Shown here one piece after another: positions 57,313-62,694 of a DNA stretch of 64,000 nucleotides. Every line of letters starts with the position of its first letter. Within the stretch, counting starts at the first letter, position 1. The position numbers and the translations under genes are program-made. The stretch is from Podospora anserina (taxonomy: Eukaryota), in contig CM030333.1 of NCBI GenBank assembly GCA_017654855.1, forward strand, positions 5,022,001-5,086,000, given 5' to 3'. The notes under the pieces are model-generated. The model was not told the origin of the DNA, did no database searches, and was given only the letters and a program-made list of their open reading frames with translations.

Positions 57313-58461
57313 TCAATTTCGAAAATCCACCACAAATCGGCGCTCCACCAGTTGCAACGTCACGCTGTTCTCCTCGCCCTCAAATCTCAAGCTTACTTTT
57401 CCAGTCGACGCTTCCGCACCCATGACCTCAGCCTTGTAAAACATGGTGCTATCTGGATAGAGCGCCAACACTGTCTTTCCCTTCTCCAGCTCGGGAAGAT
57501 CAGCCCCAGGTTGGGGGAGGGGGATCATACTGCTGGCACTAGTGCGATATTCAACCCTCTGGTCTGGTGGGAGGTCCGGATCAGCATCCTGCACCTTGTA
57601 TCGTCGTGACTTGCCCTCGCCTAGAACTTGCTGCACCTTTCCCAACATCCACTCGGTGCTGTCCGCACTGGTGGTTGGTTTGGGCTTGAACACCACATCC
57701 TGTCCTCGTAGAAACACATTGCGTGCTCGCTGCAGTGCCGTTCCAGTTCCCAAGCCGCCATCAGGGGGAACGCTATCCGCCTTGCCTGGCGTGTCACGAT
57801 CTCCTCGTGGGGGAACACTATCCCGGTTGGCAGACCTGTCGCTCCCGCCAACGCTCCCACCCAGCTTCCGGGTATGGTTGCCAGCCGGAGACGGAACCGG
57901 CGAGTCTCCGGCTCCATCAAATTCATAGACAGATCCTGGATCTTTGTCGCGGTCCTTCTCCCTCTCTCTCTCACGTTCCCTCTCCTTTTCACGCTCCCTT
58001 TCCTTTTCTCTTTGGCCCAAACCTCTCGCAGAGCTTGATCTGGCCCCACTAGAGAGCAATCCGCTGGGTCGTTCCCTGCCCCCTAAGCTCGACGTCCCGG
58101 CAGACTGGGACTCGGCGTCCTCCTTAGCCTTCACCAAGGCCCGCAGAATGGTGACGGTTTCGATGAGAGAATCAATCTGCTGCTTCGACACGTCGGCGCC
58201 CTTAACGCCACTGCGGAGCAGGGCATCCAGCTTGGCCTCTTCAGCGCCGATATCAATGGAACTGCTGTCTTTGGATGACTTGGATTTCGAAATGTACTTC
58301 TCCTGGGCTAGAATTCCTCTGAGTTCATCGTTGCTATTGTTGACTCCTTCAATCATGGTGCGCAACTCCTCTTTGATGTTTGACCAGATGGCAGCCTCTT
58401 CACCTTGGGTGCTGCCGCTGTTCCGGTTCGGCCCACGCGAGTTCCGGTTCCGAGAAGACAT
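57313..58461 (-). CDS. SGF29: SAGA-associated factor 29 (coiled coil + tandem Tudor H3K4me reader)
   Basis: 382-aa ORF. C-terminal VVFKP, EWMLG, RYKVQDADPD, VLALYPDSTMFYKAEV, LRFEGE and VERRFV. Confidence 0.9.
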   Translation of the reverse strand: MSSRNRNSRGPNRNSGSTQGEEAAIWSNIKEELRTMIEGVNNSNDELRGILAQEKYISKSKSSKDSSSIDIGAEEAKLDALLRSGVKGADVSKQQIDSLIETVTILRALVKAKEDAESQSAGTSSLGGRERPSGLLSSGARSSSARGLGQREKEREREKEREREREREKDRDKDPGSVYEFDGAGDSPVPSPAGNHTRKLGGSVGGSDRSANRDSVPPRGDRDTPGKADSVPPDGGLGTGTALQRARNVFLRGQDVVFKPKPTTSADSTEWMLGKVQQVLGEGKSRRYKVQDADPDLPPDQRVEYRTSASSMIPLPQPGADLPELEKGKTVLALYPDSTMFYKAEVMGAEASTGKVSLRFEGEENSVTLQLVERRFVVDFRN

Positions 58462-59259
58462 GCTGCGTTGATTGCGTTTCTGTGAGAATTACGATTGTGA
58501 ATGATGCTGCTATGTATGTGCTACGTTCTCACCAGAAAGATCAGCTACTACTCAATATAGGGGTTCTGCCAAGCCTACATATTAGTCGGAAGCGTCGTCG
58601 GCCCTGGCGTCTATAAAATCTCTTTGGGTTCAGCCTCCTGGTTGGTTTGGTGTCGTCAGTTTGCTGGTTTGTTCCAACCTGCCACACAATGTAGAATGTA
58701 CGTAAGTGTGCTACTGTTTCATGAGTCAAAGATAGCAAGAATTGGTCATTAAATCGTGATGGTCGTGGAGCAAACACGGAGGAGTATGTCAAATGGTGGA
58801 ATAAGACGAGGTATCAACCGGCCAGAGAACAAGGTCGCGACCATGTCCGGTGGCAGAATGAGCCATCGCGTTTGGGCGGTGAGAGAGCTGTCATTCGCTG
58901 AAGCGGGGCTGCTGTATCTCTCGGCCACTCTGCTCAAAAGGCACACGGAGGACGGGGCTGAGGGCCCCGCACTGTCTCTTTACCTTCAAGGCTCTCGACG
59001 AGGGATCCCAAGCAATGTCTTTGGTGACGTAAAACGAGGGGCTAAAGGGTGCAACAGCTCCCACCTGGAACAGTCGCTGGAGGTACCCGACATTTGATAA
59101 ATACCCAACATTGATCTGAACTAAAAGCGCGTTGGAGGTGTGCTCTGACCTGCCCGTTCTCTGCTTTGCTCCTCACCACCGCTACCGGTACCTTAGTCCA
59201 AGCACCCCATATTGGTCCATCCCTGCCCCTCCGTTGTTGTCTTGTCTCCGTCGTTCGCG

Positions 59260-60672
59260 ATGCAGGTCCCCTTGATACGCCTCCAATGCGGGGCCAACTC
59301 CTATGACTGGGGGAAGAAGGGTAGCGACTCTGCTGCTGCCAGATTTGCAGCTGCAACCCCTTCAGACGGTTTTACCATTCAAGATGATAAGCCATATGCA
59401 GAAGTACTTTCAAGCCCTCCTGGGAGTCCTACGATAATGTTGGTGATGAGCTAACAATAGTGGCATCGGTAGCTCTGGATGGGCACACATCCATCCAACC
59501 CTTCCAAAGACCTAACCACAGGCCGCACCCTGCTCGATCTCGTCCAAGACAACCAAGCCCTCCTAGCCTCGAGCGTTGCATCCAAATATGAGAACAAGCT
59601 TCCCTTTCTCTTCAAGATCCTCTCCATCGGCAAGGCTCTATCGATTCAGGCCCATCCCAACAAGAAGCTTGCCGAGAAGCTCCACGCCCGCGACCCAAAG
59701 AACTACCCAGATGACAACCACAAGCCCGAGATGGCCATTGCCATCACTCCCTTTGAAGGGTTTTGCGGTTTCCGCCCACTAGCTGAGATCTCGCACTTCC
59801 TCGAAAACGTCCCTGCCTTGCGCCAACTGGTAGGCGACGACAAGGCCCAATCCTTCATTGACACCGTCAAGGCGAACCCCGACGACAAGACCCAAAACAA
59901 AAAGGCACTTCAGACAGTCTTTGGCGCAGTCTTGTCTGCTTCGGAGGATGACCTCGCAAAAGCAACCTCCTCCCTCGTCGAAGCTGCCTCCTCCCAAGGC
60001 GCCGAGTTTGCCGCCGGCGGCGTCTCCTCCACCTCTGGCTCTGTCCTCTCCGAACTCGTAACCCGCCTCCACGGCCACTTCGGGTCCGACTACGGCCTCT
60101 TCGTCTTGTTCTTCCTCAACTTTATCAAGCTCTCCCCCGGCGAGGCTCTCTTTCTTCAAGCAGACGACATCCACGCCTATGTCTCGGGTGACATTGTCGA
60201 GTGCATGGCCTCGAGCGACAATGTTGTCCGCGCCGGCTTCACCCCCAAGTTCAAGGACGTCGACACCCTGGTGGGCATGCTGACGTACAACTATGCGCCT
60301 ATTGAGGAGCAAAAGATGGAGCCGGTGGATTACCCCTATGTCACGCTCAACAGAGCGGCGTACAGTTCTGGCTCCGAGGCCAAGCTGTACGACCCCCCCA
60401 TTGAGGAGTTTAGTGTAGTCAGGACGGTGCTCAGGGGGAACGGGTCAAAGGCTACGTTTGATCCGCTGGATGGGCCAAGTATTATCATTTGCACGGGCGG
60501 CAAGGGGAAGATTAGCGTTGGGCCGACTGTGAAGGAGATCAAGGAGGGGTATGTCTATTTTGTGGGCGCCACAGCGGAATGCGTGCTGGAGAGCGAGGCG
60601 GATGGAGACGAGGACGAGTTTGTCACTTTCAAGGCGTACTGCGAGGTGGAGGAGACGAGGAATGGGGCGTGA
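59260..60672 (+). CDS. PMI40: Mannose-6-phosphate isomerase, class I; exons 59260-59403, 59473-60672
   Basis: Motifs [72 protein letters not shown] and YDPPIEEF. Confidence 0.96.
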
Positions 60673-60886
60673 CTATCTGAGTCGGCTCGACTTTGAGAGC
60701 CTGAGAGCAATCACGAGTATCCCTAGCAAAAACACCAACCATATGCCTTTGATGGTCGGAATATCACTATAAACTCTGAATAAACGCTCAAACGTAAATG
60801 CCATAGATGTCATGCCCATCCCATGAACACCACCAACTCCAGACTCCTCCTCTCCCTATAATCATTGCCCAGCCGTGAAAAAAAAA

Positions 60887-62694
60887 TCAGTTCTCCTTCA
60901 CTCTCTTCCCCGGTCTCAGCGAATCATCCGGCAACCCGCTTCTCTTGGTCCCCGGCAGGCTCCCCGTTCGTATATCGTTATCGTCCTGACTAACCCTCCG
61001 ATGAGGGTATTCCATCTTGACCCCCGCGAAGCAGTTCGCATTGATCGGATCCGGGCTCTCGGCAAAGAACGGGTGCTGGAGCGCATTGGCAGCCGTCAGT
61101 CTCTTTTCCGGATCGTACTCCAGCAGCCCAGCCAGCAAGTTGTACCCCTGCGCGCCGAGCACCGAAAGCGAGCTCGCCCCATTGGCCTGCGCCGTCGACG
61201 AAATCTGCTGGTTGATGGTGCCGTAGTACCACTTTTCCAAGTGGGAGACGCTCGCGGCTGCGTTGTTCCCGCCTCGTCCGTGGTGGGACTGGTGATGATG
61301 GTGTGAACCATACCCGTGATGTCCGTGGTGACCTGCATGCCCACCACCGCCACCGCCTCCCAATGGCGGTGACAGCGACGGCAGCTGCGAGTACTCGGGC
61401 ATGCTCGTCAGCAACGGCCACCGCTCCTTCGTCGGCAGGCCCATGACGTCCACAATCTTTTGCATCTGGTTCCGCTGAAACGGCACCGTCTTTTTCGAGT
61501 CCATTTTTGCTTCCTCCCCCTTGAAGATGGGGCGGAGAGAGAGCAGCTCGGCAAAGATGCAGCCCACGGCCCACATGTCGATCGCGGGCGTGTAGTGCCT
61601 GCTTCCCAGCAGCAGCTCGGGAGCGCGATACCAGATCGTCACTACGACTTTGTCGCCCGAGAACAAGCTGTGGAGGGGTTTGTAGAACAGGCGGGCGAGA
61701 CCGAGATCGCCAATTTTCACCTCCCCCGACGACGTGACCATGATGTTGGCTGGTTTGAGATCACGGTGGAGGACCCAGTTGGTGTGCAGGTATTGGCAGC
61801 CGTTGAGGAGCTGGAACATGATGCTCTTGATGGTGTTTGGCGGGATGGGATGCCGCGGTTGCTGGGTGTGGTGGTGGATGATTTGCAACAAGTCGTGCTC
61901 GGCGTACTCAAAGACCATGAATATGCACTTGTCCTCGAGGATGATTTCGATGAGCTTGATGACGTTGGCGTGGTTGAGTTCGGAGCAGAGGGCCATTTCT
62001 CTCACGGCGGATTGCGAGATGCCCGTGTAGGTGACCTGCTCGCCTTCCTTGTCCGGCTTGAACTTCTTGATGGCGAACTCGCCTGGTTGGCCATGGCGAC
62101 CATGAGCCTTGTAGACACGGCCATAGGTGCCACTGGAAATGAAACCAATGACTTTGTATTTGTCTGTTACTCGCACTTTGCTCTGATACTGGATGGGTCC
62201 TCCCCGGTCACCTGGGTCTATTGTGAAGTGTTAGTCTTGTGTTTTGTCACAGGTCCGATGAAAACTGACAGGATGATGTCCTTTGCTGCTGCTGCTGTTG
62301 CTGGTAGCTGACTTCAGCTCTCAAATTTCGGGCCGGATTCATGGCGTTGACAAAATTGTTTGATCTGATATCACCAGCAGCGCTGGCAACGGCAAAAGAA
62401 GGGTTGGGGTGGTTCGGAACAGCAGGGGCATAATGGTGGGGGTGCGGGTGCATAAAGGCGGCGGTTGACGACGACGTTGAAGAAGATGAGGATGAGGCTG
62501 ACAGCGATGTGAGACCAGGCCTGGGGAGATCAACGCCGCCATTGGTGGTCTTGGCGACTACCACGCGCCGCGCTGCAACAGCAGCAGCAGCAGCACTTCC
62601 CGCCCTCGCAAGACTAAAACCGCCCCCGCCCACAGCGCTTTGTTGTTGGCCATAGGGAGTGTACTGTGAGTGTTGAAACTGCCGCTGTTGGTGG

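Follow-up and report, generated by a model that had tools for sequence, protein, structure and literature searches.

Does the phosphomannose isomerase (PMI) of Podospora anserina occur in a second, peroxisomal form, whose targeting signal is hidden behind a leaky stop codon? The question is raised by the 3' end of the PMI gene on contig CM030333.1, which was analysed here within a stretch of 64,000 nucleotides (positions 5,022,001 to 5,086,000 of the forward strand). This whole stretch is referred to as the window, and its first letter is position 1. According to the original prediction, readthrough of a TGA-CTA stop would append a short peptide that ends in ARL, a signal of the PTS1 type, and a minor fraction of the enzyme would thereby enter peroxisomes.

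Readthrough-derived peroxisomal isoforms of carbohydrate enzymes from U. maydis were reportedly described by Freitag in 2012. As stated in excerpts of PMC4207609 (Stiebler et al.), in U. maydis CUA after UGA is enough to cause readthrough, which is lower with UAA or UAG, and the UGA-CU(A) rule is valid both in U. maydis and in human cells. The same excerpts describe a screen of TGA CT open reading frames for a conserved PTS1, which gave Rpe1 and Art1 beyond Pgk1 and Tpi1. In mammalian reporters, UGA CUA G allows about 1-8% readthrough, modulated by the flanks (PMC12233894, in excerpt), and the extended fractions of mammalian LDHB and MDH1 are 1.8% and 4% (quoted in PMC9513677). A patchy distribution is typical of such readthrough-PTS1 devices (PMC9549241). 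The premise that TGA-CTA is a leaky context yielding PTS1 isoforms, with fungal PGK and mammalian MDH1 and LDHB as examples, thus agrees with published work.

The PMI gene and the sequence behind its stop codon

The open reading frame listed in Table 1 encodes a type I phosphomannose isomerase (EC 5.3.1.8). The Pfam profiles PF20511, PF20512 and PF01238 all scored above their cut-offs (E from 5.5e-41 to 6e-13), and the Candida albicans structure 1PMI matched the protein over residues 5-439 with E=8.7e-123. The sequence shows 100% identity to P. anserina PODANS_2_13950 and to the proteins of sibling species. Spliced contigs of X1, X7 and X14 contain the joint 59403/59473; these are assembled contigs from runs of which none is recorded as RNA, and contigs drop rare variants.

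Table 1. Features of the PMI gene and of the sequence downstream of its stop codon, in window positions
Feature	Position	Strand	Remarks
PMI exon 1	59260..59403	+	48 codons, ATG at 59260; Pfam PMI_typeI_cat profile positions 1-41
PMI intron	59404..59472	+	69 nt, GT..AG; skipped in three RNA-derived contigs, retained in the X21 DNA contig
PMI exon 2	59473..60669	+	399 codons; C-terminus ...EETRNGA
Leaky context UGA-CUA	TGA 60670-60672, CTA 60673-60675	+	Direct reading; motif according to PMC4207609 (in excerpt)
In-frame putative readthrough extension L-S-E-S-A-R-L	60673..60693	+	7 codons
GCT CGA CTT = A-R-L, predicted PTS1 [SAC][KRH][LM]	60685..60693	+	Direct reading
Second in-frame stop TGA	60694..60696	+	Makes ARL the last three residues of the extended protein

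The 3' end of the gene reads ...AAT GGG GCG TGA CTA TCT GAG TCG GCT CGA CTT TGA GAG..., and with TGA read as X the frame gives ...EETRNGA-X-LSESARL-X. The codons and coordinates from GCG to the second TGA had been predicted exactly, and the fit of ARL to the PTS1 consensus was confirmed. Members of the readthrough class carry a UGA followed by CU and a PTS1 tripeptide directly before the next stop. In the PMI gene the first of these is TGA CTA T at 60670-60676, in which T takes the place of the favoured G after CUA; the second is LSESARL followed immediately by TGA, where the agreement is one of motif only. The residue at position -5 of the ARL signal is Glu, which counts against its reading as a PTS1.

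RNA-derived contigs of X1, X7 and X14 cover the extension with zero differences and reach at least 61300. Because these contigs also span the convergent gene downstream, they place the extension in RNA of either strand. The neighbour is a protein-kinase gene at 60887-62230 on the minus strand (Pkinase E=5.5e-61) whose product contains an insert rich in Gly and His, ...GGGGGGHAGHHGHHGYGSHHHHQSHHGRGG...; about 190 nt separate its stop from the end of the PMI extension. Since the contigs bridge both genes, the two transcripts may overlap at their 3' ends. An AATAAA hexamer is located at 60779-60784, about 85 nt 3' of the second stop, which fits a poly(A) site beyond the extension. A stabilising RNA structure 3' of the PMI stop was sought and proved not significant (z=-0.99). 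Hence, if readthrough takes place, the short context would have to suffice for it.

The AF2 model of the Podospora PMI has a mean pLDDT of 94.2. Its final strand comprises residues 430-437, and the pLDDT falls below 50 at residues 443-447. Meanwhile, the 1PMI structure ends at the equivalent of Podospora residue 439-440, at the last strand. Taken together, these ends indicate that an extension would prolong a free tail, which is what Pex5 requires for binding. The native C-terminus is thus predicted by the model to be a disordered tail that lies free outside the fold.

Chance expectation of the two signals

The original prediction considered the co-occurrence of leaky context and PTS1 unlikely to be accidental. 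Of all 1173 TGA triplets in the window, 49 are followed by CT and 3 by CTA. When the stop-to-stop segments in the 3'UTRs of the 70 PMI loci described below were counted, 3/1510 ended in [SAC][KRH][LM] and 33/1510 in x[KRH][LM], the latter giving a background of 2.2%. TGA serves as the stop codon in 31 of the 70 loci (~44%). TGA-CT together with a canonical PTS1 is then expected at about 4e-5 per gene. A fungal genome holds about 10^4 genes, so well under one chance case per genome would arise. Among the 15 long open reading frame ends in the window, that of PMI alone carries both signals. An SGF29 tudor-domain open reading frame at 57313-58488 on the minus strand ends in TGA CTG TAG, also a context of the leaky type; as its extension is a single codon (Leu), it holds no hidden signal.

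The claim of improbability hence stands for one genome. It does not carry over to many genomes, since an accidental case is expected somewhere among them, and comparative evidence has to decide. The main rival to a peroxisomal isoform is therefore coincidence, in which CTA and the ARL-stop are accidental, any product of readthrough is too scarce or without relevance, and PMI plays no peroxisomal role in Podospora. The very large number of genes covered by the initial scan, among which some accidental matches are expected, favours this explanation, yet the expected rate of only ~4e-5 per gene works against it. Weighed with the comparative data given below, we regard coincidence as unlikely, though a contender to be taken seriously.

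PMI loci compared at the DNA level

A metagenome scan returned 290 relatives, of which 80 were kept, and 79 fungal PMI loci with 42-82% identity were obtained. The contig end was reached before the stop in L004, L005, L037 and L072, and L051 and L066 gave no C-terminal match. After removal of the duplicates L019, L033, L068 and L075, the final set consisted of 70 non-identical loci including that of the window. In each locus the PMI stop was located and the in-frame extension was read, and three TGA-CT loci were verified by eye.

The TGA-CT context was present in 4/70 loci, namely the window, L034, L028 and L049. Whereas TGA CTA T in the window precedes LSESARL with the end ARL, L034 has TGA CTA G followed by the six codons LARSRM with the end SRM. 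The stop of L049 lies in TGA CTA T, and its extension LYDQKGRKSFERL finishes with ...SFERL (end ERL). In L028, TGA CTC G is followed by the 20 codons LDGVSGKGGLNRGLKSCVRL, finishing with ...SCVRL (end VRL). Extensions ending in [KRH][LM] were thus found in 4/4 TGA-CT loci vs 0/66 others (one-sided Fisher p=1.1e-6), and in 3/3 vs 0/66 when the window was set aside (p=1.9e-5), both by a relaxed x[KRH][LM] criterion that was picked post hoc with the data already seen. By the strict [SAC][KRH][LM], only the window (ARL) and L034 (SRM) qualify, and without the window the contrast is 1/3 vs 0/66 (p=0.043). This modest value for the strict motif leaves room for coincidence. The background probability of at least one canonical end among three loci is 0.6%, and in the two off-frames 2/109 segments end in [KRH][LM]. 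Recurrence of the two-part arrangement in all three other TGA-CT orthologs, and in none of the remaining 66, argues against coincidence.

No alignable sequence was found among the four extensions, so that nothing recurs but the leaky context and the terminal dipeptide. A shared context with nothing more than R-[L/M] in common may have been left by selection on a readthrough PTS1, or it may reflect independent origins. The extension region of L049 (L049:2768-2860) aligns, with indels, to the 3'UTR of L024, starting 18 nt past the stop in both; L024 itself has the native end GNL and a TAG stop. The hidden signal of L049 seems to have been built from UTR sequence that existed before.

The lineages of these loci were read from a quick ML tree of 89 rows, with the short rows L044, L046, L051 and L066 left out. 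The window grouped with Cercophora samala and Triangularia, and L028, L026 and L034 formed one clade with 100% support. L049 was placed elsewhere, beside L050, L024 and L047, and has no named relative above 73% identity. The nearest named proteins of L034 are those of Lithohypha guttulata (86%) and of Exophiala, Fonsecaea, Cladophialophora and Capronia (77-80%), which identifies the clade of L028, L026 and L034 as Chaetothyriales. As L028 and L034 share one clade, the TGA-CT loci represent three lineages (Sordariales, Chaetothyriales and an unnamed clade) and not four. In L026, which is sister to L034, the stop context is TGA CGG and a PTS1-like end is missing.

Native PTS1-like tails in the PMI family

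PTS1-like dipeptides also occur at the native ends of PMI proteins. They were found in 26/70 loci, none of them with S, A or C at -3 and hence none canonical. Such a tail is missing in the other 44/70, and all four TGA-CT loci are among those 44. In a set of 120 Sordariomycete proteins, 21 have native PTS1-like ends, e.g. GRL, GHL, THL, EKL and QKL. In the set around L049, which includes Leotiomycetes, Dothideomycetes and lichen-formers, the number is 57/120; its tails include EKL (35), GKM (6), GKL (6), QKL (3) and the canonical AKM (4), and SKI (3) and AKI (1) come in addition to the 57. A PTS1-like native tail was seen in only 1/120 proteins of the Chaetothyriales set, the other 119 ending mostly in ...NG[AG]H.

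Across the loci L001-L079 and the proteins P0002-P0510, native x-K-L and x-K-M tails in Pezizomycotina PMIs lie far above the ~2% expected by chance. Among 149 very diverse PMIs, taken as representatives at 50% identity, 3 end in [SAC][KRH][LMI] and 8 more in x[KRH][LM]. A search of the literature found no report of -EKL as a PTS1 in fungi. The enzyme class and these family-wide tails fit a functional reading of the P. anserina extension and speak against coincidence.

Tentatively, the pattern could mean that partial peroxisomal targeting of PMI is old and widespread in filamentous ascomycetes and relies on interchangeable devices. One device would be a native tail that acts weakly (x-K-L or x-K-M, in some cases AKM or SKI), and the other a strong PTS1 (ARL, SRM) behind a leaky UGA-CU. 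A minor share of the enzyme would then be imported, and a peroxisomal Fru6P/Man6P branch might feed or drain mannose metabolism, as an echo of the glycosomal GDP-mannose pathway of trypanosomes. We rate this wider proposal as doubtful.

Sordariales relatives and the conservation of the 3'UTR

The device was not found in the nearest Sordariales loci with DNA, i.e. L001, L002, L003, L052, L059, L064 and L006. The closest relatives, in Cercophora, Triangularia and Apiosordaria, entered the comparison as proteins. L001 ends in NGA TGA CGC, and L006, a Thyridium-like Sordariomycete whose PMI protein is 71% identical, in NGA TGA GGC. The other ends are ...GTS TAG in both L002 and L003, ...SASL TAG in L052, ...NGASL TAA in L059 and ...NGQKL TGA TGG in L064. 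Judged by these loci, the stop after ...NGA is old, and the leaky context with ARL is not general in Sordariales. Conservation in orthologs, which had been proposed as a check of the device, gave a mixed picture that leans towards support: the device is present in 3/69 other loci from two other lineages, but missing in the nearest Sordariales loci with DNA and in L026. Its absence from these near relatives favours coincidence.

When L006:1725-1760 was compared with window positions 60673-60702, 18/30 post-stop bases matched, ungapped from the stop. Over the same 30 bases the other loci gave a mean of 7.3 and a maximum of 11 matches, and among control window pairs 16/72,899 reached 18. For a 3'UTR, such a match between the window and L006 is unusual conservation. 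L006 differs at both signals, with GGC for CTA and TGC for the second TGA of the window. Because the match exists without CTA or the second stop, part of the extension sequence should be older than the signal, and its conservation may have another cause. The device would either have been lost in L006 or have been gained in the Podospora lineage via few substitutions. A homologous 3'UTR without the signals is also what coincidence would lead one to expect, as few substitutions could make an ARL-stop by drift.

A second way to account for these observations is that the extension is made and has a role other than import. It might tune PMI dosage as a destabilising tail; alternatively, the ~30 nt behind the stop could be a conserved RNA element, with ARL as a by-product. 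In favour of this, the stop-anchored similarity between the window and L006 extends beyond the second stop, where GAGAGC recurs in both. The DNA contig from X21, a relative with ~88% identity, likewise aligned from 59002 to 60697 and was then unalignable until 60879 (~180 nt); that its alignment ends one base past the second stop is a weak hint of constraint. A dosage function of a stop-loss extension is also described in Fusarium (PMC13123824, in excerpt). Such a role would leave unexplained why the extensions of L028, L034 and L049 have just R-[L/M] at the end and the leaky context in common, and the RNA fold of the window is not significant. We consider it improbable.

Sexual-stage A-to-I editing of UGA to UGG, which would yield the same ARL-tagged protein in fruiting bodies only, is more improbable still: stop-loss sites of A-to-I editing abound in the perithecia of Sordariomycetes (excerpts of PMC11156358 and PMC4817773), but fungal sites strongly favour U at -1 and hairpin loops (PMC11156358, in excerpt), the A of this UGA is preceded by G and paired in a predicted stem, and the three RNA-derived contigs, which would drop rare variants, contain no A>G at 60672.

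Discussion

We favour the explanation that PMI is also produced in a minor ARL-tagged form, which is imported into peroxisomes, and we judge this moderately probable. In the proposed sequence of events, UGA at 60670-60672 would be decoded by a near-cognate tRNA in its UGA-CUA context, probably by a few percent of ribosomes at most. Readthrough would prolong the flexible C-terminal tail of PMI by X-LSESARL, and the new C-terminal ARL would act as a PTS1 recognised by Pex5. The minor isoform would then move to peroxisomes, while the bulk of the enzyme would stay cytosolic.

The PMI of the window probably joins the known class of readthrough-derived peroxisomal isoforms. Like Pgk1, Tpi1, Rpe1 and Art1 of U. 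maydis, it combines UGA-CU(A) with a short in-frame extension that has a PTS1 end, and it is a sugar-phosphate enzyme. The likeness includes a patchy phylogenetic distribution, with some species carrying the signal inside the normal open reading frame. It differs from the U. maydis class in that its host is an ascomycete (Sordariales), that T and not G follows CUA, and that the PMI case is known from sequence alone. Mammalian LDHB and MDH1 (excerpts of PMC4359377, PMC5133446 and PMC4207609) resemble it in having UGA CUA and a hidden PTS1. In contrast, UGA CUA G is complete in these two, which are conserved among mammals and experimentally demonstrated, and they serve redox shuttling rather than hexose-phosphate isomerisation.

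Two other systems show signals in native tails. PMI of T. brucei is predominantly glycosomal with the PTS1 SHM (PMC3412276, in excerpt). On the same partial account, it is the same enzyme with a C-terminal PTS1 in a peroxisome-derived organelle, whereas its SHM lies within the normal open reading frame and readthrough is not involved. For fungal fructose-bisphosphate aldolase, excerpts of Ast et al. 2013 (PMC3798809) describe a conserved non-canonical PTS1-like C-terminus and propose partial import. This weak native tail resembles the x-K-L tails of many PMIs; unlike the extension considered here, the aldolase signal, as described in those excerpts, is in the native tail and not behind the stop.

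A search of the literature found no report of fungal PMI in peroxisomes. PMI is unmentioned in the main texts of PMC4207609, PMC3798809, PMC9549241, PMC9513677, PMC13343957 and PMC12316961, and a listing in supplementary material (e.g. Stiebler 2014 Tab S1) is possible. The statement of the original prediction that the fungal PMI case is unreported agrees with this search of main texts.

If the proposal is true, small amounts of PMI would be directed to peroxisomes via a hidden signal, as fungi do with enzymes of glycolysis, gluconeogenesis and the pentose-phosphate pathway, and hexose-phosphate and mannose metabolism would be tied to the peroxisome. Peroxisome biology can be studied genetically in Podospora anserina, a model for which pex mutants exist, so the prediction is directly testable. 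In the family as a whole, some PMIs have weak native tails and others, from three or more lineages, a strong signal hidden by a leaky stop, and this pattern allows the tuning of dual targeting to be studied by comparison. The interest of the finding would rise further if the pattern of weak tails and hidden signals proves functional.
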